Assembly (NCBI GenBank): GCA_965250285.1
Contig: OZ252299.1
Coordinates: 96,001 to 160,000, forward strand
DNA from: Myxococcota bacterium
GTDB lineage: Bacteria > Myxococcota_A > UBA9160 > UBA4427
Direction of reading: 5' to 3'
Length of the DNA stretch: 64,000 nt
The notes beneath the pieces are model-generated. The model ran no database searches, was not told the DNA's origin, and was given only the letters and a program-made list of their open reading frames with translations. The position numbers and the translations under genes were made by a program. Within the stretch, counting starts at the first letter, position 1. The number at the start of each line of letters is the position of its first letter. This document shows, one piece after another, positions 8,481 to 24,566 of the stretch.

Positions 8481-8529
8481 AGTGGTGGCCCAGGGCGGAT
8501 TTGAACCGCCGACACCTCGATTTTCAGTC
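8481..8529 (-). repeat. att site: duplicated 3' part of tRNA-Phe
   Basis: AGTGGTGGCCCAGGGCGGATTTGAACCGCCGACACCTCGATTTTCAGTC identical to 24489-24537. Confidence 0.95.
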
Positions 8530-8648
8530 TCCGGCGCGCCTCTACGATCACCTGCGCAGGACCACTCCCGCGCACCCCAAATGCCTGAAAATGATGAAGA
8601 TTGATGGACTCGTGGCCACCCGCGACTACGCTTTGCTGCGTTGGGCTT

Positions 8649-8676
8649 TGCTTCCGGATGCTTCCGATTTGCTTCC
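8649..8676 (+). promoter_or_regulatory. Three TGCTTCC direct repeats, putative integrase arm-type sites
   Basis: TGCTTCC at 8649, 8659 and 8670; same motif at the other island end. Confidence 0.7.
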
Positions 8677-8712
8677 AGCGTCGGTGAGCGTGGCAAAGCC
8701 GGGAGGCCAGTC

Positions 8713-9936
8713 ATGCCGAAGCTCTCGAAGCGCGAAATCGACTCGATCTCGCCCGACCCCTGTCGCGAAGTCTTTGCCTGGGACGATGACCTGAAGGGCT
8801 TCGGCGTGCGCGTGATGCCCTCGGGACGCAAGTCCTTCGTCATCCAGTACCGCTCCGCCGGACGGACCCGCCGCATGTCGCTCGGTGCCGTAGGTGTTCT
8901 GACCCCCGCCCAAGCTCGCTCGGAAGCCATTCAACGTCTCGCGGAGGTCGCGCAGGGCGGTGACCCCTCGCGCGACCGGCGAGTGGCGCGCCTTGAGCCG
9001 ACGATGAGCGAGCTGGCTGAGCGGTACCTCGAAGAACACGCGAAGCCCCACAAGAAGCCCTCGAGCTACGAGAATGACGTGCGTGGGCTTCGACTTCACG
9101 TTCTACCGGCGCTGGGAAGCGCACGGGTCAAGGACGTGACGCGGCAAGAGGTGGCTGAGCTGCACAGTCGGATGAGAGCCACTCCCATCATTGCGAATCG
9201 CACACTCGCGCTGATCTCGAAGATGTTCAGCTTGGCTCGCCTTTGGGGGATTCGAGACGACAACCCGGTCGTCGGTGTTCCGCGCTTTCGAGAGAACCGC
9301 CGCGAACGCTATCTGTCGGAAGCCGAGATCGCGGACCTCGGTCGAACGCTGCGCGAGGCGGAAGCCCAGAGCGTCGAACCCGCTTCGGCGATCGCAGCGA
9401 TTCGGCTCCTGCTGTTCACCGGCTGTCGCAAAGGCGAGATCCTCTCGTTGCGCTGGCCCGACGTGGACTTCGAGAGAGGCTTGCTCTGGCTCAGGGACAG
9501 CAAGACAGGTGCGCGGACCGTCCCCATTAATGCGCCCGCTCGGGAGATCCTCGTCAACCTGCAACGATCTCGAACCGGCGAGACCTGGGTCATTGAGGGG
9601 CGGCACGCAGGGAAACCCCTCGTCGGGTTGTGGCGGGTTTGGAGCCGCGTGCGGGATCGGGCGGGTCTCGTTGACCTTAGGCTCCATGACCTGCGCCACA
9701 CGCACGCATCAGTCGCAGCTGATGCTGGGCTCTCCCTGCCGGTGATCGGCGCGCTTCTCGGTCACGCGAGCCCCGCTACGACCTCTCGCTATGCCCACCT
9801 TGCAGACGATCCGCGTCGCAGAGGTTCCGACATCGTGGGTGCCAAGGTTGCGGCCGCAATGTTCGACGGTCCCCGCGCCGAATTGCTGGATCTACCTATC
9901 GATCCTCGATCGTTGAAGGGGGCGACCAATGGATGA
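8713..9936 (+). CDS. Tyrosine recombinase/integrase with N-terminal arm-binding domain
   Basis: GGGAGG RBS; GFGVRVMPSGRKSF; catalytic TGCRKGEI, LHDLRH, LLGH, SRYAH. Confidence 0.95.
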   Translation: MPKLSKREIDSISPDPCREVFAWDDDLKGFGVRVMPSGRKSFVIQYRSAGRTRRMSLGAVGVLTPAQARSEAIQRLAEVAQGGDPSRDRRVARLEPTMSELAERYLEEHAKPHKKPSSYENDVRGLRLHVLPALGSARVKDVTRQEVAELHSRMRATPIIANRTLALISKMFSLARLWGIRDDNPVVGVPRFRENRRERYLSEAEIADLGRTLREAEAQSVEPASAIAAIRLLLFTGCRKGEILSLRWPDVDFERGLLWLRDSKTGARTVPINAPAREILVNLQRSRTGETWVIEGRHAGKPLVGLWRVWSRVRDRAGLVDLRLHDLRHTHASVAADAGLSLPVIGALLGHASPATTSRYAHLADDPRRRGSDIVGAKVAAAMFDGPRAELLDLPIDPRSLKGATNG

Positions 9937-10288
9937 CGAAAACGATGGTTCGGGCACCCAGCGCACGAATCTGCTTGGCCTCTCGCGGTCGTTCCGTTTC
10001 GAGTTCGAGTCGGAGGACCCGCTGGAGCGGGCTCGCGAGTTCTACCAGCAACTGCCCCAGCCACTCACGGATCCGTTCATGGAGCTTGTCGGTGACTTGA
10101 TCTGTCACGGAGGGAAATCGAGTGTGGGACTCGCGAACGAAGCGTTCGCGAGGCTGATGCAAGACTCCGGTGTGCGCGCCGGGAACTGCGAGAGGTGCGG
10201 TCGTGCCTTTCTCAAGAAGAGCTCGGACAAGCGCTTCTGCCGGCCGACCTGCCGGGTTCAAGCGAATCGGGATCGGAACTTCTCGTAG
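9929..10288 (+). CDS. Hypothetical protein with C-terminal CGNR-like zinc finger
   Basis: CERCGRAF...KRFCRPTCR; overlaps integrase stop. Confidence 0.65.
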   Translation: MDDENDGSGTQRTNLLGLSRSFRFEFESEDPLERAREFYQQLPQPLTDPFMELVGDLICHGGKSSVGLANEAFARLMQDSGVRAGNCERCGRAFLKKSSDKRFCRPTCRVQANRDRNFS

Positions 10289-10378
10289 CTCCAATTCAGT
10301 TGCTGTGTGCTGCTACGGATACGCGTAGGCGCGCACACTGCGTCCGTTTGGTTCCTTGCGGTACCGAGGGGGACTGCA

Positions 10379-10645
10379 ATGGAGCTTCTAAGGCCAGACG
10401 AGACGGTCTCGTACCTTGAGAAGGTGACCGGACGGCCCGGAATCGTCACATCTCGCACGCTCAAACGATGGCGGCGAGGTCGGCGAGGTCCGAGGCACGT
10501 CCAGCTCGAGGGGCGCATCTACTACAGGGAAGAAGACCTGAGGGTGTGGCTCTCACGCGCCGGAGTTTGGAACGACGCGCGTGATCCGCGCCCGTGGGTG
10601 AGAGGCTCGGCGGACGAGAGCCCGGTCAGGAGGTCGACATCTTGA
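10379..10645 (+). CDS. Excisionase/AlpA-like HTH protein
   Basis: TLKRWRRGRRGPRHVQLEGRIYYREEDL; GAGGGGG RBS. Confidence 0.75.
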   Translation: MELLRPDETVSYLEKVTGRPGIVTSRTLKRWRRGRRGPRHVQLEGRIYYREEDLRVWLSRAGVWNDARDPRPWVRGSADESPVRRSTS

Positions 10646-10875
10646 CCTCGAACTCGGAAGCGTCATCGTCGAACGATCGACAGCGCCTTCTCACCACCGA
10701 GGAAGCAGCGCGGTTTCTCGCTGTTTCGCGCCGGACACTCGAGAAGTGGCGCCTCACGGGACAAGGGCCGGCGTACCTGAAGCTTGGCCGAAGGTCTGTG
10801 CGGTACTCGCCCGGAGAGCTAGATCGGTTCCTTCGGGGGAGCGCTCGGTCTTCGACCTCAGAGGTGCCGGTATGA
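10642..10875 (+). CDS. Excisionase-type HTH (HTH_17-like) protein
   Basis: AGGAGG RBS, TTG start; LLTTEEAARFLAVSRRTLEKWRLTGQGPAYLKLGRRSVRY. Confidence 0.85.
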   Translation: MTSNSEASSSNDRQRLLTTEEAARFLAVSRRTLEKWRLTGQGPAYLKLGRRSVRYSPGELDRFLRGSARSSTSEVPV

Positions 10876-11156
10876 GCGCCCCCGAGCCCACCGATTCGGA
10901 GACCGGCCGAGAGTCGGTTCTCGAAGGCCGCGTGCGCGACGTTCTCAGTTCGTGCCCGGAGGCGCAGAAATCGCGGTTCCTGAAGCGAGCGGAGAGAGCG
11001 GTAGCGGGTTCCCGGTCTGCCGCGATTGAACTCAAATGCCTCGAATGCTGCTGCTGGTCGCTCTCAGAGGCGCGTTCCTGCCATATCGAGGAGTGTGCGC
11101 TCTGGTCGTATTCGCCGGCTGCTTCTGCCCGCAAACAGCTAGGGGTTCAGGGATGA
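10872..11156 (+). CDS. Small Cys-rich phage-type hypothetical protein
   Basis: ATGA coupling; AIELKCLECCCWS...SC...CALWSY. Confidence 0.65.
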   Translation: MSAPEPTDSETGRESVLEGRVRDVLSSCPEAQKSRFLKRAERAVAGSRSAAIELKCLECCCWSLSEARSCHIEECALWSYSPAASARKQLGVQG

Positions 11157-11638
11157 TCGTCGAAGACGATCGCCACCTTTCCCCGAAGGATGACCCCTAC
11201 TCGACGCTGGTTGAGCCCGGCGACAGCTACGTCGTCATGCCGCTCAGAATCGAGATCGGATCGAACTACCGTCGGCTCATCGCATTCGTTCGGTGCCAGA
11301 TCGTTGAACCTGCTGAGCACTCGGGTCTTCACATCTTTCGCTTCGTGAATCTGCCGGCTTGGTGGAAACCTCGTGCGAGGGGCCGAATCGGCAGGCGAAG
11401 CAATCTCTGGGCCGATTGCGTGTCGCTGTCTGGACGAAGGCCACCCGCAGGGTGGTTCGAACTCGAGCGACTCTACGCGGCCGACTCGATGTATCGCGCC
11501 AAGATCGTCACGGTCAGCGAAACCCAGGGCGAGGGTGGGCGTCGGGAGCCGATGCATGTGTGCGAACACTACTCGCGAATCGACCGATTCTTGGGGCAGG
11601 TAGCTGGATCTACCCCGCTAGGTGGCCGGGCTCTGTAA
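11153..11638 (+). CDS. Hypothetical protein
   Basis: ATGA coupling with the upstream gene in the island core operon. Confidence 0.55.
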   Translation: MIVEDDRHLSPKDDPYSTLVEPGDSYVVMPLRIEIGSNYRRLIAFVRCQIVEPAEHSGLHIFRFVNLPAWWKPRARGRIGRRSNLWADCVSLSGRRPPAGWFELERLYAADSMYRAKIVTVSETQGEGGRREPMHVCEHYSRIDRFLGQVAGSTPLGGRAL

Positions 11639-11696
11639 CCCAAACCCTAACCACAACCGCAACACTGACGGGAACCTCAACAGCAACAGGATACGG
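11637..11696 (+). repeat. Ten degenerate 6-bp periodic units, mostly AACNNN
   Basis: aaccca aaccct aaccac aaccgc aacact gacggg aacctc aacagc aacagg atacgg. Confidence 0.6.
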
Positions 11697-11987
11697 ATAG
11701 AACTGGCCAAGGAATACGGGCACTTAGAATCGGTCCATCCATCTCGACGCCGACCTCCGGAGACGTGTGAGACATGCAATGCGCGCTTCTGTGACTGGGC
11801 GATCTGCTTAGAACGTTTTCCACCGGGTCGCTTGCTCGACCCACTCACTCGGGAATCCAGCCAGGGGGGAGGCGGCCCTTGTTGGGGCCGTCCTCTCCTG
11901 ACTCGGATCTAGCCAGATCCCCGAGCCGCTGTGGGCCATGAAATCCAGGTTGGCCATGTGATTTCGATGAAATGGTGGAGCTGAAGG

Positions 11988-12602
11988 ATGGGAGGCATTG
12001 GGTCCGGGCGCTACGGAACACGGCCACTCGTCGAGAACACGCTCAAGCTCGACGTGCTCTTGCTCACACGCAACGGGATTAGGCTGGGCGATGGCAACGT
12101 GTCGTGGAACAGGGGAGGGGAGCTGCTCTCGTCGATCGCATACAGAGTCGGCCGAGTTGGGTCCGATCCGACTTTGACGCTTCGCTATCTCGCCGGGCCA
12201 GAGAAGCGACCTATGCGGCAGATGATTCACCTTCAGTCGACACGCCCTCATCTGGGCGGCGAAAGATGGTGGTTTACCTGTCCACTGGAGGGCCGTCGAT
12301 GCCGGATGCTCTACTTCGGAGATGTTGTTGGCTTCAGCGGATTCGCTGGCCGAAGAGCACTTGGCCTCGCGTACCGGTCGCAGTGTGAGCACGCGGGAGA
12401 TCGCGCACTTCGACGAGCGCAGAAGCATCTACTTCGCCTAGGCGGCGAGGGCTGTATCGCAGATGAGATCGAGGGTCTACCGAAGCCAAAGTGGATGCGA
12501 TGGAAGACGTTCCATCGGCGGATGCTGGCTGCTCAACTGGCCGACGCGGAGAGCTGGGCATGGGCGTTCGAGCGAGTAGGCTCGACGCCCCACGATCGAT
12601 AG
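11988..12602 (+). CDS. Conserved island hypothetical protein (MGGxGSGR type)
   Basis: MGGIGSGR...GGERWWFTCP...LAYRSQ...PKPKWMRWKTF pattern, recalled from tRNA-integrated elements. Confidence 0.7.
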   Translation: MGGIGSGRYGTRPLVENTLKLDVLLLTRNGIRLGDGNVSWNRGGELLSSIAYRVGRVGSDPTLTLRYLAGPEKRPMRQMIHLQSTRPHLGGERWWFTCPLEGRRCRMLYFGDVVGFSGFAGRRALGLAYRSQCEHAGDRALRRAQKHLLRLGGEGCIADEIEGLPKPKWMRWKTFHRRMLAAQLADAESWAWAFERVGSTPHDR

Positions 12603-12802
12603 CGGTCGTCAAGCCTGACTCCGCCCCAGCGACTCGATGCCCCCCCCAATGTGTCTCGGACGTGATATGAAGCATCAGTCTCATTCTCCGCTTCGCGCGA
12701 CCCCTTGCGATCGTCGCAAAGCGTCGAATCTACAGCTAGTTGCGAAGGCCGACGCTGATATCGCTAGGATCTTACTCGGCGAGAGCGGCGATGGGCGTCG
12801 CC

Positions 12803-12826
12803 GTCGAATACAAGTTAGGCGGCGGC
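12803..12826 (+). other. Array start: attI-like or secondary recombination site (GTTAGGC core at 12814)
   Basis: GAATACAA-GTTAGGCGGCGGC; complementary to GCCGCCGCCTAAC ending the first cassette; no attC left arm upstream. Confidence 0.65.
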
Positions 12827-12871
12827 TTCAGCCGGGAACGGCCAGGCTTGAGCCCAGCCGTCCCCAGACCT

Positions 12872-13117
12872 TCACTCATCTCTGAAGTAGTAGTTCCGCG
12901 GCTCGCCGTCGTACTGCCCGGTCCTCAGGCAGCACTTCTTGAAAACCGGCGTCCCGAGCCGCACGGACACAAGTCATTCCGCCCGAGCTTCTCCTCGAGC
13001 TCCTTGTTCCCGTGCACGACACGTCGGCCGCGCTTCACATGCGTCTCGCTGGGGTAGCCCTTCCGGCGCTTACTCGTTCTCTCGAAAGCGCGGGAGGTCG
13101 TCGTTCTTGGTTGCCAT
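12872..13117 (-). CDS. SEC-C motif mini-protein interrupted by two frame changes (recoded gene or pseudogene); antisense cassette
   Basis: AGGGAGGT RBS + [11 protein letters not shown]; +1 frame [10 protein letters not shown]...[14 protein letters not shown]; then -1 frame [22 protein letters not shown]. Confidence 0.7.
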
Positions 13118-13170
13118 GGGGCACCTCCCTTCTTGTGCGGGCCGTGGTGGCCCGGGCTTTGGGCGCGCAG

Positions 13171-13199
13171 GTTGTACCTCAGGTTGGGTGTGCAGTCCA
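13171..13199 (-). promoter_or_regulatory. Putative sigma70 promoter of the SEC-C cassette
   Basis: TGGACT-17 nt-TACAAC on the minus strand, followed by a CGGGCC/GGCCCG hairpin before the RBS. Confidence 0.4.
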
Positions 13200-13236
13200 C
13201 GCTGCGCAGGCCACCAGCAATTTCGGGCACGCCGCC

Positions 13237-13367
13237 GCCTAACAAGCCGTTGCAGCGGACTTGCTCCCGCTGAGACGATCTCGGGTCGTGGTAGACTGGC
13301 GAGCGTCCGAGGCGTTCAGCCACTGCGAGCAAGGCCGCCGCAAGCCGCTGAACGCCGACCGTTAGGC
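13237..13367 (+). repeat. attC site 1 (131 bp)
   Basis: GCCTAAC...GTTGCAGC...GCTGAAC...GTTAGGC; R and L boxes with extrahelical base. Confidence 0.93.
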
Positions 13368-13376
13368 GGCGGGCGC

Positions 13377-13757
13377 GTGCGCACACTCGCGGCATTGCAT
13401 CCGATCCTCCTCGCTGGGTGCCCGGCGACATACTGGGCTCAGATTCAGAACGAGTCCTCAAGCCGTCTCGTAGCCGTTCCGCCGTTCGAGTCCTCGTACG
13501 CGGTTGCGATCTCATCGGGCAGTTCTGCGCGGGTCTCCTGGTATCAGCCATGCCTAGTTCTTGTCGACGTCGACCGAGCCGAAACCAGTTTCTTTCAAAC
13601 GTTCCCGTTCCCCGACAACGTGGCGAGAACTCGCATGTTCTCGGTCAGACTCGAAGCAACGTACTCAGAGGGCCGTCTCTTCCTCGAGGCCGAAGACGGG
13701 TCCCGATTCGAGGTGCCCCGCGTCGCCGAGTGCTCAGCTGCCACTCCCGCCGCCTAA
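13377..13757 (+). CDS. Cassette ORF, putative lipoprotein
   Basis: GTG just after attC, LLAGC lipobox, TAA stop inside the next attC core. Confidence 0.7.
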
Positions 13758-13882
13758 CAAGCCGTTGCAGCGGACTTGCTCCCGCTTAGGCGATATCGGG
13801 CCGTGGTAGAATCACGCTCGTCCGAGGCATTCAGCTGCTGCGAGCAAGGCCGCCGCAAGCCGCTGAACGCCGACCGTTAGGC
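13752..13882 (+). repeat. attC site 2 (131 bp)
   Basis: Same architecture as attC 1. Confidence 0.93.
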
Positions 13883-13896
13883 AGCGGGGCCCGGAG

Positions 13897-14139
13897 ATAG
13901 GACGCTACAAGTTCAAACTCGGGAACAAGCCCAGGCGCAAGCGCCGTCTCGATTCCGGACGGTCGCGTCTTCCCGGACCCGAGCGCCCGGCTGAACGCCC
14001 TGAAGTATCCGATAGGCGTCTGCTCTCGTTCTCCGACGCGAAGTGGCGCGTCCCCACATTCTCAGAGCTCCTGGCCTTCGCTGCAATCGCCAGCATTTTC
14101 GCTGTGATCGTCGCGTCGGTCTATTGGCCGGGGCCCTAG
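13897..14139 (+). pseudogene. Cassette ORF without canonical start (ATA); basic N-terminus and C-terminal TM helix
   Basis: ATA GGA CGC TAC... open to TAG 14139; ends LLAFAAIASIFAVIVASVYWPGP. Confidence 0.45.
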
Positions 14140-14225
14140 GTGGGGCTTCCTCTGCTTCGCTTCAGCGTTCATGAGTATCTCTGCCACTTGACTCAGGCTT
14201 GGCACTCGTGTCTGCATCCGCCGCT

Positions 14226-14356
14226 GCCTAACAAGCCGTTGCAGCGGACTTGCTAACGCCGAGGCGATCTCGGGTCGTGGTAGACTGCCGGGTGTCCGAG
14301 GCGTTCAGTCGCTGCGAGCAAGGCCGCCGCAAGCCGCTGAACGCCGACCGTTAGGC
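14226..14356 (+). repeat. attC site 3 (131 bp)
   Basis: Same architecture as attC 1. Confidence 0.93.
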
Positions 14357-14365
14357 AGCGCGACC

Positions 14366-14776
14366 GTGAGCCGGGCCGATGGACTCGTCCTGCATTCTCG
14401 ACAAATGAAGCACTCGCGCTGGCTTGCAAGGGGCTTCGCGACGCTTGCGATTCTCAATTCGATTCAGCGGGCGTGGCCTCAGGCCGCCCTGTTTACTGCG
14501 TGCGCCGTCGTGTTCTTCGCATCCACTCGATCAAACTTGAACTGGCTGCTCCTTTCAGACTCCATCGAGTTGCCGAGAGGTCCTTGGCGTCAACCGCGCT
14601 CGCTTGATCTAACGAAGCTGGCTTCGTGGCAATTCTTCCAGCCGACGAATGAGCTTACGCTGACCTTCCGAGATTCCTCCTCTAAGAAGCTGAGCCTTAG
14701 CATTCTAGAGCCAGACTCCCGCAACGATCTCGTTCGTGAACTCGAATCCCGCGCACCCGGTAGACACGTCACCTAG
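14366..14776 (+). CDS. Cassette ORF, small membrane-associated hypothetical protein
   Basis: Fills the space between attC 3 and attC 4; hydrophobic N-terminal half. Confidence 0.65.
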   Translation: MSRADGLVLHSRQMKHSRWLARGFATLAILNSIQRAWPQAALFTACAVVFFASTRSNLNWLLLSDSIELPRGPWRQPRSLDLTKLASWQFFQPTNELTLTFRDSSSKKLSLSILEPDSRNDLVRELESRAPGRHVT

Positions 14777-14787
14777 CGACGCGCGCT

Positions 14788-14918
14788 GCCTAACAAGCCG
14801 TTGCAGCGGACTTGCTAACGCTGAGGCGATATCGGGTCGTGGTAGAATCTCGGACGTCCGAGGCGTTCAGCAGCAGCGAGCAAGGCCGCCGCAAGCCGCT
14901 GAACGCCGACCGTTAGGC
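14788..14918 (+). repeat. attC site 4 (131 bp)
   Basis: Same architecture as attC 1. Confidence 0.93.
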
Positions 14919-14921
14919 GGC

Positions 14922-15389
14922 ATGGCGAATCCCCTGCTAACAACGCTTGCTGCTGTCGCCCTCGTATGCTGCTCGGGTACGGTGTCTCAGTCGAACATCG
15001 ACGGCGAGCCGACATCCCATTGCGAGCCAAAGCCACCGATAGAGTACGCTGCCTATGGCGTCGTCTTGAGCATCTCATCATCGAGTTGCATAGACGCCTC
15101 TGCACCGCTTCGTGATGGTGCCGGGTACGAATGGCTGTACGTCTACGATACGTATACCTTCCGGAATTCAGAGCTAGAGCTAGCGGCGCGCAGCTATGGC
15201 GAATCGTCCGAAGCTCACTTTCTCCGCCTTTCTGAGTCGGGCGAATCTCGATTCCTCACACACTCCGACTTCGACACTCCCATCGTTCTCGCGGCGGTCC
15301 AGTATCTATCCGAAGCGGGCAAATCCGAGCTCACGTGGCTCGACCCTCAGAATGACCTCAACGGCTATTCGCCAGTACCCTCTCGGTAG
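14922..15389 (+). CDS. Cassette ORF, putative secreted protein or lipoprotein
   Basis: MANPLLTTLAAVALVCCSG signal; fills the cassette. Confidence 0.7.
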   Translation: MANPLLTTLAAVALVCCSGTVSQSNIDGEPTSHCEPKPPIEYAAYGVVLSISSSSCIDASAPLRDGAGYEWLYVYDTYTFRNSELELAARSYGESSEAHFLRLSESGESRFLTHSDFDTPIVLAAVQYLSEAGKSELTWLDPQNDLNGYSPVPSR

Positions 15390-15402
15390 GCTGAGGCATT
15401 CC

Positions 15403-15533
15403 GCCTAACAAGCCGTTGCAGCGGACTTGCTAACGCTTGAGCCGATTTGGGTCGTGGTACCATGCCGGCTATCGATGGCGTCTCGGCGCGCTGTGCCAAA
15501 TCGGCGCAAGCCGCTGAACGCCGACCGTTAGGC
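15403..15533 (+). repeat. attC site 5 (131 bp, more divergent centre)
   Basis: Conserved ends GCCTAAC/GTTAGGC, variable centre. Confidence 0.92.
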
Positions 15534-15573
15534 AGCGGAGGTTCTGGCACCGTGACCATGGGAAGCATCGTCG

Positions 15574-16806
15574 GTGTATAGCTTGATCGTTTCTCACCAG
15601 TTCAGTGACTGGGAGGGCAGAGCCTTCCAGTTCAACAAGGGACGCTTCCTTGAGTACACGAGCGACGCGATAGCAGAGCAGTTGTGGCCCCTGTCGACCG
15701 AGGCCATCGAGTGCCTCAAGTCGTGGCCGTGCATTCTGATGGACGAGGGGCGAGCGGAGGAGCTCGTTCGCATCGCCCGCATATCGGAGCTTCAGGATCT
15801 TGGCGACGAGATTTGGCTAGCCGTCGATCTCGTTCCGACCAAAGTGCCCATACTCAACGACCACCTTTGGCGAGTCCGGGATGAGCTGGACGTACGGCAG
15901 TTCGAGTTCAGCCGGAACCACTGGGCAGTGAAGGAGCGGGACCTCTTCAGAGTCCTTCGGGCAGCCGGGCTCGATTGCGAGAGCTCCGCGAGCGGCGCCG
16001 TGGAGGAGAGGCCGCTTCCCGCACCTACCCGGGCCTCCTTGATCGCGGCACGAAACTCGATCTCCAACTGGACTCATACTGAAATCGACGATCTGCTGCT
16101 GGAAGCGGGCGTGGCGGGTCTATCTGCGGGGCGAGGGTTGGGCAGCCGCCGTGACCGCGCCAACGCGATCGTTCAGTTCGCGATCGCGAACCCGTCGGAA
16201 GTAACCGCAGAGAACTCTCTGTTCTCCGCCTACCTCGTGAGGCGATCTGTCGGAGCTGGCGATGGAGACGCGGAGGATGCCTCTTCGCCTCTGATTCACG
16301 AGGGCGCTTCCGTGCCTCAACCACAAACCGGCGACGGCTCCACCCCCCGATCCTCCAATCGGGTCTTCGTGGTACACGGGCAAGACGAGACTGCTCGCAC
16401 TGCGGTCGTCGCTTTCCTTGAAAGCCTAGGATTGGTTGGAGTCGTCCTCCATGAACAACCGAACATGGGTCGTCATCTTCTCACGAAGTTCATCGACGAA
16501 GCGGACCTAGCAACTTTCGCCGTAGTCCTTATGACAGACGACGACGTAGGAGGTCTCAAGGGTCAGGAGCTCGCGCCCCGGGCTCGCCAAAACGTGATCC
16601 TAGAGTTGGGCTACTTCCTTGCACACCTCGGTCAGGCAAGCGTATGCGCTCTTGTCGCGCCCGGCCTGGAAACGCCCTCGGATTTCGACGGCATCGTCTA
16701 CATCACCATGGACGATGATCAACGATGGCAAGAAGAGCTGAAGCGCGAACTCTTGGCTGCGAAGATGCCTGTTGTCGAAGCCCCGAATAGCGCATCCGCT
16801 GGCTAG
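15574..16806 (+). CDS. TIR-like (CAP12/Pycsar-type) domain protein with N-terminal accessory domains; candidate defence gene
   Basis: RVFVVHGQD...LHEQPN...FAVVLMTDDD...RARQNVILELGYF...PSDFDGIVY. Confidence 0.85.
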   Translation: MYSLIVSHQFSDWEGRAFQFNKGRFLEYTSDAIAEQLWPLSTEAIECLKSWPCILMDEGRAEELVRIARISELQDLGDEIWLAVDLVPTKVPILNDHLWRVRDELDVRQFEFSRNHWAVKERDLFRVLRAAGLDCESSASGAVEERPLPAPTRASLIAARNSISNWTHTEIDDLLLEAGVAGLSAGRGLGSRRDRANAIVQFAIANPSEVTAENSLFSAYLVRRSVGAGDGDAEDASSPLIHEGASVPQPQTGDGSTPRSSNRVFVVHGQDETARTAVVAFLESLGLVGVVLHEQPNMGRHLLTKFIDEADLATFAVVLMTDDDVGGLKGQELAPRARQNVILELGYFLAHLGQASVCALVAPGLETPSDFDGIVYITMDDDQRWQEELKRELLAAKMPVVEAPNSASAG

Positions 16807-16935
16807 TAGGGGCTTGCACTTGACAACGGACAGCTGGGCGTTCCTAGGTTCGGTAGCGTTCTGGCGACGGGACTTCTGTAGTTTGGTGCTGACGGTCAGC
16901 GCTGTATGTCGCAGCTGAAACCCGATCTTTTGGGC
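16801..16935 (+). repeat. Decayed attC site
   Basis: GGCTAGT...TTGCACTTGAC...GCAGCTGAAACCC...TTTGGGC; preceding TCCGCTGGCTAG is nearly complementary to the cassette start TTAGGCAGCGGA. Confidence 0.6.
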
Positions 16936-16974
16936 AGCACGCTGCCTGGTTGCCCTGCGCGTTCCAGTTGATCA

Positions 16975-17952
16975 ATGGCGCTTGACCACTACGTTTCTCA
17001 GGTTCATCTCCGCGGGTTTGTCGCATCGGACCTCGGCAATCGAATGTTTGCGACTAGCAAGAGCACGCTCAAGAGGTTCACGCCAACGCCCAAAGCCGTC
17101 TGCAGAATCGAAGAGGGAAGCACCAACGACTACTTGAGCGATCCGCGTGCTGTCGAGGACTTTCTGAAGCTCATCGAGCCGAAATACAACTCCGCGGTCG
17201 ACTCTCTCCTGGCCTCTGACATTCACGATGACGTGATCATGACGCTGGCCGGCTTCGCCGCGTACGTCTACGTATGCTCTCCCGCAGGTATGCGACTTGC
17301 CATGGGTCCGCTTCGCGCATCTGTGGAGGCGACCGCCGAGATTCTAGACCGGCAAGGCGAACTCCCGCCGATACCACAAGGGCTCGGTGCATCCTCGATC
17401 AGGGAGCTCTTTGAGATGCAGGCGCTCAAAGTTGACGTAGATCCGAAGTTTCCACAGGCAATGGGAATCTCGCAGATCGTTCAGCTGGCGGCTCAGCTCG
17501 GCAACTTCCCTTGGGAGATTCTTCGAAATGAAGAGCGAGGCAGCCCGTTCTTCACATCAGACTTTCCAGTCGCGCTACAGCAGAGTTCCGATCCTCGTAT
17601 CATGAACAGGATTGTTCCGCTCACGCCTAAGCTAGCGATTCGAATCCTCCCGAACTTTGAGTCCAGGACGGATGAGCCAGACCTCTCGTTCTCCGGCTTC
17701 AGGTACCGAGTCCGTACCCTGCGCCGCAGCGAAGTTCGAGTAGTCAACGAGCTGCTCGTTCGTGCTGCGGAAGACTTCGTGTTCTACTGCGAAGATCACG
17801 CCTGGACGCCGAGGTTCATCGAACGAAACCGACACTACCGAACTGAATCCGTGACCGAGAGGATCCCGACGCCCACGGGCGGCGAGCTTCAAGTCAGTGG
17901 CCAGCGAATCGCGCCGTTTCGGCGACCGCCCGCGGCTGTAGGATCAGCCTGA
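16975..17952 (+). CDS. DUF4238 domain protein
   Basis: DHYVSQVHLRGF, FFTSDFPV, IVPLTPKLAIRI. Confidence 0.78.
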   Translation: MALDHYVSQVHLRGFVASDLGNRMFATSKSTLKRFTPTPKAVCRIEEGSTNDYLSDPRAVEDFLKLIEPKYNSAVDSLLASDIHDDVIMTLAGFAAYVYVCSPAGMRLAMGPLRASVEATAEILDRQGELPPIPQGLGASSIRELFEMQALKVDVDPKFPQAMGISQIVQLAAQLGNFPWEILRNEERGSPFFTSDFPVALQQSSDPRIMNRIVPLTPKLAIRILPNFESRTDEPDLSFSGFRYRVRTLRRSEVRVVNELLVRAAEDFVFYCEDHAWTPRFIERNRHYRTESVTERIPTPTGGELQVSGQRIAPFRRPPAAVGSA

Positions 17953-17965
17953 GTGGTTGCCCGCG

Positions 17966-18087
17966 GTCTGGCAAGCCGTTGGATCGGGCCGCCCCCAGCT
18001 GCGGCGGTATCGGCGTTGGTACTTTTTTTGGCAACTAGCCGGGTGCATTCTGCGAAGCCGGTCAGCAGCTGGCCGATGTCGCTAGAC
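17966..18087 (+). repeat. Decayed attC-like site
   Basis: GTCTGGCAAGCCGTTGGATCGG...GCCGGTCAGCAGC...GCTAGAC. Confidence 0.5.
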
Positions 18088-18130
18088 GTCGACCGTTTGG
18101 CAGTTTGAAGCACGAGGAAACCAGTAGAGC

Positions 18131-19333
18131 ATGACTGCTCCTTCGAACAAGAAGTATCGGGCCGCACTTGTTGCAATATTTATCAGCGGCGGTGTGCTGG
18201 CAGCTCTGGTCGGGCTAGTTCCCTTCATACTTGGTAACGCACCGCCGGTTCCCGTACTTGAACTGACTCCTGCTGAGAAGTACGGCTATGCACCGATGAC
18301 TCTTGTAGCCAACGGCAGCCGATCCTCAGACCCCGACGGCGATTCGCTAACTTACGCTTGGCGCTTCAACGGCCAGGGCGAAGCTGAAGTGTCATCGCTC
18401 TTGGAGAAGCGAATTGCTAGGGGAGGGAAGTACCGGCTTGAGTTCCAGGTCTCGGATGGAAGCCACAGTCTCCCACCCCTCATCGAGTTGATCACCGTTC
18501 TCCCGCCGCTGAAGGATCTCGAAATCCCACCGCTGGCCCAGGACACCGTCCTGACTCATCCCGACGTGACACTCGTTCTGCCTCCAGAAATCGTAACGAA
18601 CGGATTCGGCCTTACGATCGAAGCTGGCGGCATCAAGGCAGGCGACACGAAGATCGTCTCTTTCATCAAGCCTAAAGCCGATCCCGTCTCGCCAGGGTCG
18701 AACGGTTCACGAGGAGGGCGGACAGGGATTCACGGCGACCCGGGTGAGAATGGAGCTGATGGATCAGATGGCAACGATGGCAAGTCACCTGGGCCTATCG
18801 TGCTGAAGGCCCCCTTCCTGTCAGGGAACCTTGCGATATCGAACCGTGGACAGAGTGGCGGAGACGGCGCGCCAGGGGGATCTGGGGGAAGTGGCGGGAG
18901 CGGTGCGAACGGACGCAACCGCGGCGGAGACGCAATCTGTTCAAACGATGTGCGACCCGGCAATGGCGGTAACGCTGGGAGGGGCGGCGATGCGGGTCGG
19001 GGCGGCGATGCGGGTGATGGAGGCAGCGGCGGCGATGTCACCGTCATCGTGGAAGATATTGATGCCCAGATCACGGTCGATGTTTCGCCGGGCTCACCAG
19101 GTATGCCGGGAGAACCTGGAACGCCCGGGCAACCTGGCTCTCGAGGAACTGGTGGTAGGCGGAGCCACTGCGGGGGCGGGGGGAGTGACGGAGGTGCGAA
19201 CACCGCCGGATCCGAACGGCCCGAGGGAGCGCCCGGCTCGACTGGCCACCGCGGCAACATTAAGTTCGTGATCGGTGGTCTTGAGCAGAATTATGCCACT
19301 AGCTCGGCCACACTTCGGAGATTGAGGAAGTAG
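18131..19333 (+). CDS. Membrane-anchored PKD/REJ-like protein with Gly-rich collagen-like region
   Basis: N-terminal TM; NGSRSSDPDGDSLTYAW; long G-x-y runs. Confidence 0.75.
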   Translation: MTAPSNKKYRAALVAIFISGGVLAALVGLVPFILGNAPPVPVLELTPAEKYGYAPMTLVANGSRSSDPDGDSLTYAWRFNGQGEAEVSSLLEKRIARGGKYRLEFQVSDGSHSLPPLIELITVLPPLKDLEIPPLAQDTVLTHPDVTLVLPPEIVTNGFGLTIEAGGIKAGDTKIVSFIKPKADPVSPGSNGSRGGRTGIHGDPGENGADGSDGNDGKSPGPIVLKAPFLSGNLAISNRGQSGGDGAPGGSGGSGGSGANGRNRGGDAICSNDVRPGNGGNAGRGGDAGRGGDAGDGGSGGDVTVIVEDIDAQITVDVSPGSPGMPGEPGTPGQPGSRGTGGRRSHCGGGGSDGGANTAGSERPEGAPGSTGHRGNIKFVIGGLEQNYATSSATLRRLRK

Positions 19334-19797
19334 CGGCGGCTCAGGAATGTTCCGGACGTGGCCGCCACATGGCACCGCGTTTCAGCGGATCGGCAGAACC
19401 TCGGTCCAATCGAACTCGGCTGCCAACTCGCACAATGCTCTGGGCGCAGGCTCGACCATGGCAAACGCTGTATTTGGCCGCGGTACCCCGACGTACGATC
19501 CCCGCGACCTCCTGAGGCCACTTCGCATCAAGCCGGTTGCGAAACCGACACAGGCATAGGGATTCTAAACACTCGGTCAGGCATCCGCGGAGCTGTAATC
19601 ACGCGCGGTGTTGGGCCCGGACGACGCGGCTCACCGATGTGGCGATCAGCTGGAATGCTCCTCATCGATCCGAAATGCCGCATCAAACAACGAGAAGGCA
19701 CGGCCATGCCTTGACAACAGAAGTGTTGTTGGCCGCAGGCGCGTCTGCCGGACCCAGTCGTGGTGAGCTGAACACAGAACATGCCACTCCGGTCCGG

Positions 19798-20292
19798 CTA
19801 AATCGGCGCAATTGTGAGCGTGATCCCGGGCAGATCGTTCACATCGTCGTCAAGGCACTCGTCATCACTCGCATGCAACGTGACCACGATCTTTCGGTTC
19901 TCGATGAGCCACCCATCACTCAGGTTGGTGCTTGAGCGCTCGCTCCACCCCGCCTTGCCCAGGACCTCTGCAATCGCAGAAGACAGACCCTTGGCTTCGC
20001 TGACCGCTTTGGACGCCGACTGGCGGCACCACTTCACAGCGAGCTCAGGGGAGCTCCCTGGTGACCCTGTTACTTCACAAGCCGAGCTGTTCGGCGGTAA
20101 CTTCTTACACTTCCACCAATGATGAGTGTCGTCCCACATCTCCAAGTCCTTCGCCCCTCTCATCGAGGAGAAGTCTGACTCCGACGCTTTGATCGCTGCG
20201 CGTAGAAACTCTTCAACGCTCTCAGCACCTGCGGCTCCCGGGATGGCAATTGAAGCCAATATGACTGCAATAGTCATCACAGCTGATCTCAT
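19798..20292 (-). CDS. Secreted hypothetical protein
   Basis: GAGG RBS, signal peptide, four Cys. Confidence 0.6.
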   Translation of the reverse strand: MRSAVMTIAVILASIAIPGAAGAESVEEFLRAAIKASESDFSSMRGAKDLEMWDDTHHWWKCKKLPPNSSACEVTGSPGSSPELAVKWCRQSASKAVSEAKGLSSAIAEVLGKAGWSERSSTNLSDGWLIENRKIVVTLHASDDECLDDDVNDLPGITLTIAPI

Positions 20293-20309
20293 ATCCTCTA
20301 CCCCTCGTT

Positions 20310-21137
20310 CTAGAGACCGAAGTTCCGCCTGCCGTAGCTGAATGCTTGCGAGAATCGAGTTGCACCGCGGAGCGCGAGTTCCCAACCAGCGGTCGCAGCT
20401 TGGAGACGCTGTGCCGGTGTGCCGTGGTGACCACGTGAGTTGAACGCGTAGTCACCCTTGTCGAAAACTGAACGCGCGGCACCTCGCGCATCGAAACGTG
20501 AGCCATGAGCAGTCTTGAATCCGAGATACCAGCCAGCCACGAAATCGGCCAGGAGTTCCATCTTCACGGTTGTTCCTACGGCATTCGCATTGAACTCAGC
20601 GATGTGAGCCCACTCATGAGCCATAATGAAGACGGCCGCACCCTCCCAAGCCAATGACTGCTCTTCTTGCTCCTGCTTGAGGAGATTGACACCGAAGCAA
20701 ACGGACCCGTGAGAACTCCCGAGGAAGGGGTCACTCGTGGCGAAGGCATTAGGACCGTCGGAGTCGTCGAAGAACGCAAACCCTGGTCGGTAGCCCATTA
20801 CGTCACCCAGCACCCGCGTTTCGAGCGAGAACGCCTGATCGATGTAGGGCCAGCCGGTGCGCTCAAGTAGCTCGAAGTTGGATTGGAGGGCTCTCGAGTC
20901 AGCCCGGTTGAGTGTGCAGCCTTGGTCAAGCGAAAAGGTCGCTCGGTCGCCACGCGTCTGCCTGCTCTGGCTACCATCGCCCGCTGATGGCCAACCGGCG
21001 CCACTCGATCCGCTGCTGCCCCCTCCCTCTTGATTCGAGCTTTCGCCTGGCCAGCCGCTCGCCAGCCCGAGCCTGGAGTAGGAACACGAACCCGCCGCAA
21101 CCCAGGCGGCGATAGACAGGAATGTCCTTCGGTCCAT
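20310..21137 (-). CDS. Exported zinc metallopeptidase (HExxH), Tat-like signal
   Basis: MDRRTFL; GPNAFAT, MAHEWAH, ELLADFVAG, HHGTPAQR. Confidence 0.8.
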   Translation of the reverse strand: MDRRTFLSIAAWVAAGSCSYSRLGLASGWPGESSNQEGGGSSGSSGAGWPSAGDGSQSRQTRGDRATFSLDQGCTLNRADSRALQSNFELLERTGWPYIDQAFSLETRVLGDVMGYRPGFAFFDDSDGPNAFATSDPFLGSSHGSVCFGVNLLKQEQEEQSLAWEGAAVFIMAHEWAHIAEFNANAVGTTVKMELLADFVAGWYLGFKTAHGSRFDARGAARSVFDKGDYAFNSRGHHGTPAQRLQAATAGWELALRGATRFSQAFSYGRRNFGL

Positions 21138-21163
21138 CCGACAGCCCTCCTCGGGCCAGATGT

Positions 21164-21655
21164 TCAGGAGTATTTCTTGATGCGAATAAAGACGTAAGGC
21201 TTGGACCCTGTAGAGGCGGTAAGGGTGATGCTCATCTTGTCTAGGGTGACGAGGCCAGAGCTCTGCCTTGTGTTGGTCAGTACCCAAAACGACTCGCTCT
21301 TGTAGTACTTGCCTGACTTCGAGTCAGACTCCTTGTGCTCGACCTTGACGCGTCCTATTCCCTCCACAACCTCCCATTCGCCAGTGAAGCAATCCGAAAC
21401 ATCCGAGAACATCGACGAGAAGAACGCGGAACTAGCGCTACGCGACATCCCTCGCCACTCGCACTCCACATGATCGCGAGAGGAGTCACAAGCCGAGTCA
21501 TCGGGAACAGAGGTAGGAGCGGACCCCTTCCCAAGTGCCCCGATCATCGCCCTCAAGTCTCGACAGACCTCACCAGCATCGGCGGGGCTCGGCGATGCGA
21601 TACCCAATGCTACGATCGTCGCAGCAACGCGCGAAAGAGTTCGACCGTCAGCCAT
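21164..21655 (-). CDS. Secreted hypothetical protein
   Basis: GAGGAG RBS, signal peptide, four Cys. Confidence 0.6.
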   Translation of the reverse strand: MADGRTLSRVAATIVALGIASPSPADAGEVCRDLRAMIGALGKGSAPTSVPDDSACDSSRDHVECEWRGMSRSASSAFFSSMFSDVSDCFTGEWEVVEGIGRVKVEHKESDSKSGKYYKSESFWVLTNTRQSSGLVTLDKMSITLTASTGSKPYVFIRIKKYS

Positions 21656-21817
21656 CAACGTCTCCTCGGCGCATCGGTCGTCAACCGCCGACGCCGTTGT
21701 GAAGAAAGCTCTCAGCCCGAGCGCGACATGCCCCCGTGCGGTGAACTTTTGAGTTCCCAATAGCGCTGCGCGAGGCGAGTACAGTTGGAGCCCGTCCACC
21801 GCTAAAGGTCTGGCTGG

Positions 21818-22108
21818 TCAGCGTCCTAGGTCCGTCACAGCCCACCGAACCATGCACTTCCACCGTTTCCAGGTGGCTGCGTCCGAGTCCTCCTCGCAGT
21901 CGCAGCTCTGGATGTTCACGTGCTTCTTCCCATAGGTGGCGATACTGCTCGTCTTAAGTTCCGCCATCTCCAACGCGCTTGAGCAGGCGTCGATCTTTGA
22001 TCCTCCGACTCCAATCTCGTGCCCGGTGGCATCACCAAGCGCAAGTGAGGCGCTGGAGATGGATATGACACCAATGGCCCCGGCCAGGTACGTCCAAGTG
22101 CTATTCAC
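21818..22108 (-). CDS. Small secreted Cys-containing protein
   Basis: GAGAGG RBS, signal peptide, AC...SCDC...WKC. Confidence 0.6.
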   Translation of the reverse strand: MNSTWTYLAGAIGVISISSASLALGDATGHEIGVGGSKIDACSSALEMAELKTSSIATYGKKHVNIQSCDCEEDSDAATWKRWKCMVRWAVTDLGR

Positions 22109-22159
22109 CCGTACACCTCTCTACCAACGCCGACCTCAGAATTGCTGCGTCCAAACAGA

Positions 22160-22450
22160 TCATGGGTCTGGCAGGCATTCGACGAGCTGGCAGAGCTTCT
22201 CGCAGGCAGGTGGCTTAAGGCCGCACTGGTGTCGACCTGGCTTCGGTACACCTGCATCGTTGAAGCCGCAGCCCGGAGAAGGCCTGATCTCTTCCCGCAG
22301 CTCTCCACCGGGACAAAAGTCGCCAGGATCAGCCGGCTCGAACCTGGGCCCGGCTCCCTCTCTGCCGGGTGCGGTCGACGTATCGTCGTCAGCGACTAGA
22401 GGTCCGACGCATAGGAGTGTCGTAGCCGCGATTGCAAGAAGACACCGCAT
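22160..22450 (-). CDS. Possible small secreted Cys-rich protein
   Basis: MRCLLAIAATTLLCVG signal, six further Cys; co-oriented with the cluster. Confidence 0.4.
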   Translation of the reverse strand: MRCLLAIAATTLLCVGPLVADDDTSTAPGREGAGPRFEPADPGDFCPGGELREEIRPSPGCGFNDAGVPKPGRHQCGLKPPACEKLCQLVECLPDP

Positions 22451-24406
22451 TACGACCACGAGCGTTGTCTCCGCTTTGGGTCGCCGACTGCGGCACCGAC
22501 GAGTGAACCTCAGTTTGGAATCTCTTGCAGACTCAGGAGGTATCATCGATCGTATTGTACCCAACTCTGGCAATCCCTAAACGCTCTGCCCTCACCCACC
22601 TCGCGATGCACGCAGCAGCGGCTCAGTCGTAGGCGTTTCTACGCGTGGCCACTCTTCACCTCGACTCCTTCAGACTGCCCCGCTGGGGATTGACGATGCG
22701 GTTGCCGAGGGAGGAGACCTTTGCCGTCATCTCGAGTCGGTAATTCGAGGAATCAACATGGGCTGCGTTTAAAGACTCATGAGCGACCTCTGGGGTAGTG
22801 AAGCTCAACTCGTTTGCGCAACACATCTACGCGTACCGCATCTCGATTGGGTTCGATAGATATGCGATTGCTCACATTCGCCCGGCCTCATTCAACTGTT
22901 CCGAGAAGATTCGAGCCGCGCACTCATGAAGGCCATCCACTCTCAGTGCTCTCGCGAAGCGGGATCGAGCTGCGTGGCCCGACGCCATCTCCAGCTCGTG
23001 CTCCTCGTGATCTGCTACCGAAGCGATCTCGAGCGCCATCGCGTCCGAAGCGTGTTGAGTAGGCGCCATCACCAACGGGACGCAGTACCTAACCGCGACT
23101 TCTCGTGACACCCCAACTCCGTCCACGATCTGGCGATTGAACCTTGGAATCCATCCAGCGTGCACGACCTTGCTTGGCCCGCAACACCGAAGTGTGCCTG
23201 AAACCCGCCGGACGTGCCGCAGCCTCGATCCCCTCAGAAACCAAAGCATCTGCCAGATACGGAATGACCTAGGGTGCGGCATTGAACGCATGGCGGCTGA
23301 CATGTCACCGGTCGGGCGGGGATCGGTAGGCTGCAGATAGGATCGGTCCCCATACATGCAGTTGGCAGACACCATGTCGAAAAGGCACAGCGCTGGCGTT
23401 CGCTGAGTCTACCCAGCGATGCGAATAGACAAGGTCGCGAGCCGCCGGCTAACGACGTTCACCGGCGTGCGGACAAGTCCTGTGCCCCAGACCCTTGATA
23501 CTCGGATGCCATCTACCCACCCCAAGTGAAACGCGTGCCGGCGGGTGCACAGTGGGCTGTCGATGGCTGCTCGCGTCCGGAGAACTCACTTCGCCACCGC
23601 CGTCGATTCCGTTTTCGTGGTTGCCTCACTTTCGGTTGGCTGAACCGTATTGGGCAGTCTCACCGGCGCGTCTCTCTCGTAGCCGGCGCGGATCGCACCC
23701 GCGATCGGAGATTCGCAGTGCGTTCGGAACGGATCGGTACCGACAACCAGCCCACAGTGCCCGCGCTGAGAGCTCGTTCGTTCTGAGTTTCGGGTCTATT
23801 CGCGCTGCAACGCCACACGTCCGCGCCGGAATCAGAGACTTCGGCCTAGAGCGCGATCACTAATCTTCCATCGTCGAGATGGTCATTCATGTGCACGCGA
23901 AGCACGTCTCGGGGGACCACTCGTACTTCAGATACTCAGGTACGGGGTAGGTGTCAGGAACGACTTCTCGCTCGAGTTCCTTGGACCACGTTGCGATCCA
24001 GGAGGCCTGCGTGCCTCAGCAATGAACTCCTGAGTCACTGGATCGATCGTCGACGGCTTGTCACGTGAACACGGGCGCCGTTTTCATGCTCAAACAGGAA
24101 CAAGGGTGGTTGGTTTGTGCCCGAGGTCAGCCCCTAAATCAGAAGGCGGTTGGACCCTCCCATGCTGCAGGGTCTTCTTTGACTGTGCCAACACAGAACC
24201 CGATTAGAGGCTCTTGGTCTTCCGCAACTATCCCGGCCACCTCGACGACTTGCAGAGCTCGACGCACAGACACGATCTCAAGCTTCGTGGCCAGACTGGC
24301 TACTTGTCTGGCAAGTCGTGAGATTTGCTGAGGAGTTGTTGCGTCATCCGCAGCCCACTCGGCCATGTAACGGATGGCCGAGCGCCGGGTGTGACGGAGT
24401 GCCCCG

Positions 24407-24424
24407 TGCTTCCGCTGGGCTTCC
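24407..24424 (+). promoter_or_regulatory. Two (T/G)GCTTCC repeats, putative arm-type sites; IHF-like site nearby (TAAGTGATTGTTT, 24466-24478)
   Basis: Same motif and 11-bp spacing as at the left end. Confidence 0.6.
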
Positions 24425-24490
24425 GGCAACTCGACCCAGCGAGCGATTGCCGAGGGCGAATCCCTAAGTGATTGTTTTGTAGGGGAAAAG

Positions 24491-24566
24491 TGGTGGCCCA
24501 GGGCGGATTTGAACCGCCGACACCTCGATTTTCAGTCGAGTGCTCTACCAACTGAGCTACCGGGCC
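24491..24566 (-). tRNA. tRNA-Phe (GAA)
   Basis: GGCCCGGTAGCTCAGTTGGTAGAGCACTCGACT-GAA-AATCGAGGTGTCGGCGGTTCAAATCCGCCCTGGGCCACCA, 76 nt with CCA. Confidence 0.97.

Follow-up and report, generated by a model that had tools for sequence, protein, structure and literature searches.

prfB, the gene of release factor 2, contains a single +1 frameshift site with an internal Shine-Dalgarno (SD) sequence and is regulated by its own product. Here, we describe a bacterial SEC-C mini-gene that resembles prfB in having a short zero-frame leader, in a +1 re-pairing that would take place in the ribosomal P site on a U-rich tetramer, and in carrying its functional part in the new frame. A stop codon comes next at 143 of the 391 sites scored in the family of this mini-gene, a further likeness to prfB, whereas the sites of the copy described here are followed by sense codons. 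We also draw a distinction between prfB, in which one site helped by an internal SD senses the gene's own product (PMC12421855, in part), and the mini-gene family, which has two to four serial UUU-Y sites that are movable, shares no internal SD and does not encode a release factor.

As UUU_Ynn, the tetramer itself is an established +1 shift-prone sequence of bacteria, even in the absence of a stop codon (PMC5009743, in part). The Yersinia YopN-TyeA shift and the influenza PA-X site UCC_UUU_CGU share the tetramer and the direction with our sites (PMC5009743, in part), PA-X being also alike in its flanks, with TCC before site 1 in 40 and CGA after it in 54 of 119 family loci. These are, however, single low-level shifts that yield a minor alternative product, whereas the mini-gene is incomplete without all of its shifts. 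Several shifts per gene (2, 10 and 12) are found in genes of Euplotes and of some mitochondria (PMC5009743, in part), with about 11% of Euplotes genes needing a shift (PMC5011710, in part). Those systems are eukaryotic or organellar, whereas the mini-gene is one bacterial family whose hosts read TTT-Y normally elsewhere; a genome-wide shift rule of the Euplotes type is absent from our host, whose long ORFs hold 2486 in-frame TTT-Y. High-level shifting can also be incidental, as the pheL study warns (PMC3082878, in part), a warning that is answered in the mini-gene family by the shifted frames being the conserved ones.

On the protein side, the SecA-like domain is defined by the motif CxCx8C[CH] (10.1101/613315, in part), and such domains have Zn or Fe, SecB and ribosomes as binding partners (10.1101/613315; PMC6620043; both in part). 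The mini-gene product shares CxCx8CC, a conserved Ser and an aromatic residue with the SEC-C proteins of PF02810 (SecA tail, YecA, YchJ), and differs from them in standing alone at about 80 aa, with its own basic N-terminal region and a D-G..R-E tail. A literature search of mainly open-access papers and the text of PMC3711429 (the GeneTack survey) and PMC5009743 gave no description of the mini-gene; SEC-C goes unmentioned in the main text and two supplements of the survey.

The mini-gene and its cassette

The window, by which we mean the whole stretch of 64,000 nucleotides analysed, carries the mini-gene on its minus strand at 13117-12872, with the following features:

8481-24537, no strand: 16-kb integrated element with a tyrosine integrase (8641-9936) and identical 49-nt att repeats, at the host's single tRNA-Phe(GAA) gene
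12815-13361, plus strand: integron gene cassette of 547 bp with the mini-gene, antisense, as sole content; bounded by the cut between G and TTAGGC (12814-12820) and the attC crossover at 13361
13237-13367, plus strand: attC site, GCCTAAC ... GTTAGGC, the first of the element's five; bottom-strand hairpin z -2.97
13171-13199 (read 13199-13171), minus strand: weak promoter-like TGGACT-17 nt-TACAAC, found by eye with 8 of 12 matches; candidate only
13123-13128 (read 13128-13123), minus strand: Shine-Dalgarno sequence GGAGGT, 5 nt ahead of the ATG at 13117; from the sequence
13085-13117, minus strand: segment 1, ATG plus 10 codons, the last being TTT; from the sequence
13082-13090, minus strand: slip site 1, CGC TTT CGA, +1 (TTT to TTC); commonest site of the family, with TTT at the junction in 119 loci
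12943-13086, minus strand: segment 2, 48 codons, basic region and first SEC-C half (CxC, Ser, aromatic Phe); Pfam match, pN/pS 0.21
12940-12948, minus strand: slip site 2, CGG TTTT C AAG, net +2; has an extra T compared with the TTT-Y site of the family
12872-12940, minus strand: segment 3, 22 codons, CC metal ligands and conserved D-G and R-D/E end; TGA at 12874-12872, pN/pS 0.43 and 0.38

Read as written, the zero frame gives a 15-aa peptide that stops at TAA 13072-13070. Shifts of +1 at CGC-TTT-C and of +2 (net) at CGG-TTTT-C, three skips in all, lead to an 80-aa SEC-C protein. The +1 frame is open for 48 codons, from TTC at 13086 to TTT at 12945-12943, and covers positions 1-13 of the 19 in the Pfam SEC-C model; the K-K-C-C segment that completes the motif is back in the first frame of the mini-gene. 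CxC lies in segment 2 and, eight residues on, CC lies in segment 3, so that CxCx8C[CH] is complete only after the shift at site 2. The CxC...CC or CH pattern that an earlier first-pass annotation named as needed for metal binding is present in the stitched product, which also has the conserved Ser and uses the Phe encoded at slip site 2 as the aromatic residue of the domain. The codons next after sites 1 and 2 are CGA and TCA, both sense. Family sites 3 and 4, introduced below, are in frame in segment 3 of the window copy, the position of site 4 being 12884-12875.

Our reading of the sequence recovers the three minus-strand segments of that annotation and the two frame changes on which it held the SEC-C product to depend, and departs from it on the second change, which it took as -1. 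Reading TTT-Y as a four-base step mends site 1 and fails at site 2, where TTTT-C needs two skips and a single skip leads into an out-of-frame F-Q-E-V reading. We rejected -1 at site 2 as tRNA-Phe would then have to re-pair on GUU; a +2 over TTTTC is the better description. The annotation also gave the cassette a promoter-like sequence of its own. A weak candidate is indeed visible by eye (listed above), whereas a consensus promoter scan found none above threshold; extended -10-like motifs occur in 40 of 154 homologue upstream regions against 11.9 in shuffles.

Sites of the attC type have RYYYAAC and GTTRRRY ends and a bottom-strand hairpin. The ends and the hairpin are present here, and the attC bounds bear out the view of the locus as an antisense cassette, with the mini-gene on the minus and the array on the plus strand. 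The same repeat has 53 matches after an IntI gene elsewhere in the genome (C1:5462834, at 5.46 Mb; TIGR02249 above cut-off), and the 16-kb element in the window has no IntI match. As the mini-gene travels alone in its cassette, action in trans is likelier than a leader role. We treat the insertion of the element at a tRNA-Phe gene, given slip sites at Phe codons, as coincidence, and an Rfam search of the element found no family except tRNA.

Several side observations concern the surroundings of the cassette. Five cassettes with superintegron attC sites and without IntI in a phage-integrase element (13237-15548; compare G000:C1:5462834-5500115) look like cassette export on a mobile island. After the last attC come a CAP12/Pycsar TIR effector gene (15574-16806) and a DUF4238 gene (16975-17952), likely anti-phage cargo. 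A tandem array of 42-nt units lies at 26376-26627 of the window.

The best PDB matches of the product, YchJ and SecA tail peptides, cover the SEC-C motif only, ESM Atlas holds only SEC-C fragment clusters, and none of the NCBIfam models reaches its cut-off. An AlphaFold model of a natural in-frame core has a mean pLDDT of 55.6, leaves the basic N-terminal part unresolved and was too poor to be used in a fold search. The product may bind ribosomes or RNA.

Authenticity of the breaks and state of the window copy

The breaks are not a sequencing error. Logan contigs of runs X1-X3, which come from one study that is possibly the source of the assembly itself, cover both sites with 0 differences and 0 gaps. 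A 249-nt contig from another study (run X5 record 2; 12881-13129, depth 3.1, about 98% identity) also runs across both sites with 0 gaps and keeps the extra T; its 4 substitutions amount to 2 synonymous codon changes and 1 nonsynonymous one. Contigs of two studies agree on the length of the T runs, the point at which raw-sequence errors had been a concern. A further contig (X9 record 19), 82% alike, aligns ungapped with 16 synonymous against 5 nonsynonymous codons in 24 of the 32 differences listed; it reaches just 17 nt beyond the T run and is only suggestive for the extra T.

Is this particular copy still functional? The extra T at site 2 reflects either a double slip, making three skips in total, or early decay, and on balance we regard the window copy as probably functional. 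The competing view, which we hold to be rather unlikely, is that the family is recoded while the window copy is decaying, the extra T being a slipped-strand insertion by which the CC-containing product was lost. TTTT-C with +2 at site 2 is confined to the window copy, 1 of 160 loci (L031 has a like case at site 1), the copy sits in a mobile cassette, and clearly degenerate copies do exist in the family (5 low-scoring loci). Odd breaks in the class relatives L173, L174 and L176 may likewise be errors or decay. Against this, the extra T is common to the independent 98% contig and probably to the 82% contig, the codon re-paired at every slip step would be a cognate Phe codon, 11 loci have +2 at a single site as TTT TTT T, and three skips is the family mode. 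All five class relatives of the window copy lack site 4; their added skips lie at G-F-P (L175), AAA-A (L174) and GGG-A (L176 and L177), the L173 break is unexplained, and some breaks in this L173-L177 set are possibly assembly errors. Phe specificity is thus not absolute, two relatives skipping at GGG-A and one at AAA-A.

Extent of the family

The family is old and scattered over many phyla. In a protein search with the middle segment, 1368 of 1370 candidates match, with 83-94% identity among the 120 matches listed. The middle segment also gave at least 327 genome loci and at least 395 metagenome loci, of which 80 each were kept. Titles of 66 named loci place the family in at least 14 phyla. 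Cultured carriers include Chthoniobacter flavus Ellin428, Brevifollis gellanilyticus and Novosphingobium fluoreni. Its spread is patchy: the mini-gene was found in 3 of 61 relatives, 6 of 225 in the class and 6 of 401 in the phylum, and four other groups gave 5 of 301, 22 of 301, 12 of 251 and 18 of 401. Seven viral stretches matched, two of them full-length, annotated phages gave no match, and plasmids gave two unannotated matches. Among the matches listed from protein databases, there are only truncated, mis-framed pieces of the family.

Proposed slip sites and selection in the shifted frames

Of the first 160 unique loci, 157 have an SD-led start, and the SD is strong in most copies. As a side observation, the best SD-led start of five loci (L062, L063, L075, L087, L111) is ATA instead of ATG and would be read better at low fidelity. 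The junction between start and core requires +1 in 126 of the 157 loci, was scored +2 in 14 (11 with TTT TTT T, one window-like and two mis-assigned) and is in frame in 17. Within the core, site 2 falls at the SEC-C aromatic residue, site 3 before D-G and site 4 before the final R-E/D. TTT-Y is present in 123 of 125 shifted against 1 of 34 in-frame copies at site 2, in 40 of 44 against 0 of 116 at site 3, and in 108 of 112 against 0 of 16 at site 4, where 32 others were unclassified or irregular. In most homologues, site 4 adds just R-E or R-D to a hydrophobic Y-F/F-F end and could mask a C-terminal degradation signal.

We aligned the loci with an aligner that has no TTT prior and a flat shift penalty, using a profile from 122 loci and 198 loci in all, with 5 low-scoring ones dropped. 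Internal frame changes fell at TTT-Y in 357 of 395 cases (background 3.8%), and the 395 changes comprise 384 of +1, 5 of +2 and 6 of -1. In the whole-genome samples (42 loci), the TTT-Y share is 72 of 82. T runs are 3-4 long at 306 and 6-7 long at 47 of the 357 sites. The codon before site 1 varies (TCC 40, TGC 33, TTT 20 and CGC 14 among 119 loci), so the CGn-TTT (Arg-Phe) context once taken as the signal gives way to TTT followed by T or C, and the two sites first recognised have become at least five site positions. An internal G-F-P Phe offers a comparison: it is TTC in 90 and TTT in 8 loci, is a real skip site in 3 loci, and its TTT-C is read in frame in 8 loci.

The protein is under purifying selection in all segments, as judged from codon substitutions in the shifted frames, where pN/pS is 0.21, 0.43 and 0.38 against 0.94-2.07 in the other frames (152 loci). 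The four Cys and the Ser of SEC-C are 100% conserved in these loci, and the residues stay the same although third codon positions change freely. The earlier proposal of programmed recoding in place of random decay is upheld here by homologue breaks kept at TTT and coding conservation in each segment, and on these sequence comparisons programmed +1 recoding at the level of the family is very likely. Looking for stimulators, we found no internal SD shared near the sites (strong pairing in 15 of 125 shifted cases at site 2, 7 of 44 at site 3 and 1 of 112 at site 4), no 3' structure at sites 1-2 and no synonymous-site conservation in segment 2.

Number of skips and the search for intact forms

In the pooled set of 199 SD-led loci, none is full-length as written, so no intact single-ORF homologue came to light in it; 6 further loci lack an SD start. 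A one-base skip after each in-frame TTT-Y completes 167 of the 199, with 2 skips in 32 loci, 3 in 118 and 4 in 17, and never fewer than 2. The remaining 32 fail this rule, some being cut off and at least 7 having an in-frame TTT-C that must not slip. The variance of the skip count is 0.285 against 0.80 in shuffled sites, and genes with 0-1 skips number 0 against 8.1 expected, with kinship ignored in both comparisons. Four loci (L033, L232, L233, L236) have all core sites in frame and three TTT-Y skips in a longer leader, and in the sample that holds them 14 of 17 SD-led loci have three skips and 3 have two. Skip positions shift between lineages, and a tree comparison for compensation between sites gave just 1 and 3 supported pairs. 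Selection seems to act on the number of skips and to leave their place free, which is a pattern and not a proven result.

A search with the natural in-frame core found, among the best 120 of 1387 matches, 0 that fit the patterns for both native ends. P0122, the closest intact candidate, was rejected as its 99% match L232 has three skips upstream. Of two further proteins, P0132 carries F-S-K in frame at site 2, and P0130 appears to need site 4 only.

Host decoding and gene neighbourhoods

In long host ORFs, TTT makes up 9.6% of Phe codons (3236 of 33,588), so the earlier remark that it is rare in the flanking host genes stands for the codon but does not extend to TTT-Y, which is not rare (2486 cases) and is common in some neighbours, the DUF4238 gene having 8 TTT to 10 TTC. 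As the host reads all of these in frame, the tetramer alone cannot slip often, and in view of the lack of a shared SD or structure a nascent-peptide or condition-dependent stimulator would be needed. The slippage step would be probabilistic, given the G-F-P TTT-C read in frame and the host TTT-Y read normally. The host has a single tRNA-Phe(GAA) with an ordinary 7-nt loop and A36-A37-A38, has miaA and miaB, and yielded no special frameshifting tRNA; two 'gaaa/aa' ARAGORN calls near homologues, made at a relaxed threshold, look like degenerate tRNAs. As a separate observation, array tRNA-Phe(GAA) genes near L069, L104, L105, L116, L120 and L167 have G37 in 7 of 8 cases against A37 in the host. 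Such tRNAs would escape MiaA/MiaB modification and might slip more easily, turning the gene on.

Among 98 ORFs scanned directly downstream, 19 are RNA-repair genes (TROVE 7, RNA ligase 5, AAA_33 kinase 3, RtcB 2, Thg1 1, Hen1 1) and 44 have any Pfam match; upstream neighbours are mostly unrelated. Three or more tRNA genes accompany 14 of 203 loci, and in the G552-class whole-genome sample 11 of 19 loci have same-strand tRNA genes upstream, two with RtcB after. Impairment of translation leads to induction of long tRNA arrays (PMC8421152, in part), and loss of the array repressor TrcR raises frameshift read-through (PMC10272220, in part). A small share of the homologues is found within, or directly behind, tRNA L-array/TrcR regulons or RNA-repair operons (RtcB, TROVE, Rnl-Pnkp-Hen1), whereas the window copy sits in an integron cassette, and the portions of PMC8421152 and PMC10272220 consulted have 0 occurrences of a SEC-C gene. 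A search by eye for a TrcR box upstream of homologues gave nothing clear. Most loci have no stress-related neighbour, nor does the window copy, which is not co-oriented with a tRNA array or with RtcB, TROVE or ligase genes. The array and RNA-repair neighbours favour translation stress in this minority of loci, the window excluded.

Two recurring arrangements were seen in passing. A conserved non-coding stretch just after the stop, between mini-gene and TROVE (L014, L096, L097, L104, L105, L119, L149), is possibly Y-RNA-like or a degenerate tRNA gene. In L237-L240, L245 and L250, tRNA genes, endonuclease V, the mini-gene and a ~400-aa protein with a weak VWA match recur together.

Mechanism and alternative explanations

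In light of these frame changes, how might the full product be made? From the short T runs, the ordinary host tRNA-Phe and the known proneness of UUU_Ynn, we infer P-site re-pairing, and ribosomal slippage of this kind is likely the means. When the A site is slow, peptidyl-tRNA-Phe(GAA) in the P site would re-pair from UUU onto the UUY that overlaps it; at site 2 of the window copy one tRNA would slip twice, UUU to UUU to UUC. The yield of full product would then scale as p^n over n sites, with unshifted ribosomes releasing short junk peptides. Under translation stress, the trigger could be a delay in the A site or a weaker anticodon loop of tRNA-Phe, leaving the mini-gene nearly off in healthy cells and on under stress. 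The product, basic and predicted to bind Zn/Fe, would work in trans, with the ribosome or damaged RNA as its most likely target. Taken as a whole, a conserved ~80-aa SEC-C mini-gene whose full product arises by serial +1 slips at UUU-Y, as a steep stress switch, is the explanation that we favour with some confidence. The stress-gated role taken by itself is a fairly probable part of it. The mini-gene may sense fidelity or Phe-tRNA status, as first suggested, with support from the neighbourhoods of a minority of loci only.

An unlikely variant is that the slips sense methylthiolation of tRNA-Phe A37 by the Fe-S-dependent MiaA/MiaB pathway and so report iron, sulfur or oxidative status. Without the ms2 group, +1 slippage in the P site goes up 3-9-fold (PMC5699536, in part), which over three sites amounts arithmetically to 27-729-fold. 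Almost every site is a Phe codon, iron is a ligand of SecA-like domains (10.1101/613315, in part), and the host carries miaA and miaB, with A36-A37-A38 in its single tRNA-Phe. The presence of near-universal genes such as miaA and miaB does not discriminate, however, the neighbours are RNA-repair genes and tRNA arrays with no iron or Fe-S genes among them, and the 143 sites with a stop codon next point to A-site delay. That the serial slips are a constitutive damper on a toxic or ribosome-binding peptide, with nothing sensed, would suit the apparent preservation of count over position and the many monocistronic copies in unrelated contexts; a strong SD in most copies is wasteful for low output, for which a weak SD or promoter would be the cheaper route, and we judge the damper quite improbable.

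A cis-acting leader, in which the ribosome's end position controls a downstream operon and the peptide is irrelevant, could draw on site 4 adding just two or three residues and on RNA-repair genes often being next. Residues are fixed while third codon positions are free, the distance from stop to next start is ~70-190 nt in those 10 of 16 RNA-repair loci for which a start could be located, 19 of 47 loci have a hairpin after the gene, and the window gene is alone in its cassette, all of which makes the leader very improbable. RNA polymerase slippage generally needs T runs longer than 3-4. Frame restoration before translation, by such slippage or by editing, would suit the 47 sites that have runs of 6-7, with the 306 of 357 at 3-4 speaking against it; a four-base tRNA is at odds with the ordinary 7-nt loop of the host's only tRNA-Phe, and both with in-frame TTT-C that is sometimes read normally, so that we give this group of explanations hardly any weight. 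Family-wide homopolymer errors or random pseudogene decay might be suspected from breaks in T runs and the many metagenome assemblies among the sources. They are refuted already by the counts: about 200 loci share the breaks, across many assemblies and with cultured strains among them, with 384 +1 against 6 -1 changes, purifying selection and no intact allele found.

Implications

Returning to serial slippage at UUU-Y, over a thousand entries annotated as short SEC-C or 'YecA-like' proteins would be mis-framed fragments of one unrecognised protein. Known bacterial regulatory frameshifts use one site; an obligatory two to four in an 80-codon gene, across at least 14 phyla, would be new. The broadest form of the proposal, on which we are evenly divided, is that of a cross-phylum 'frameshift counter', in which the slip probability of tRNA-Phe would be multiplied three times, so that a few-fold loss of frame control would raise a metal protein that binds ribosomes or RNA at least hundred-fold, and in which selection would act on how many slips there are and not on their places. 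If true, it would be an ultrasensitive switch built from translation errors. The mini-gene would also be a compact natural reporter for loss of reading-frame control, one that bears on whether tRNA-Phe modification or A-site delay is the driver.
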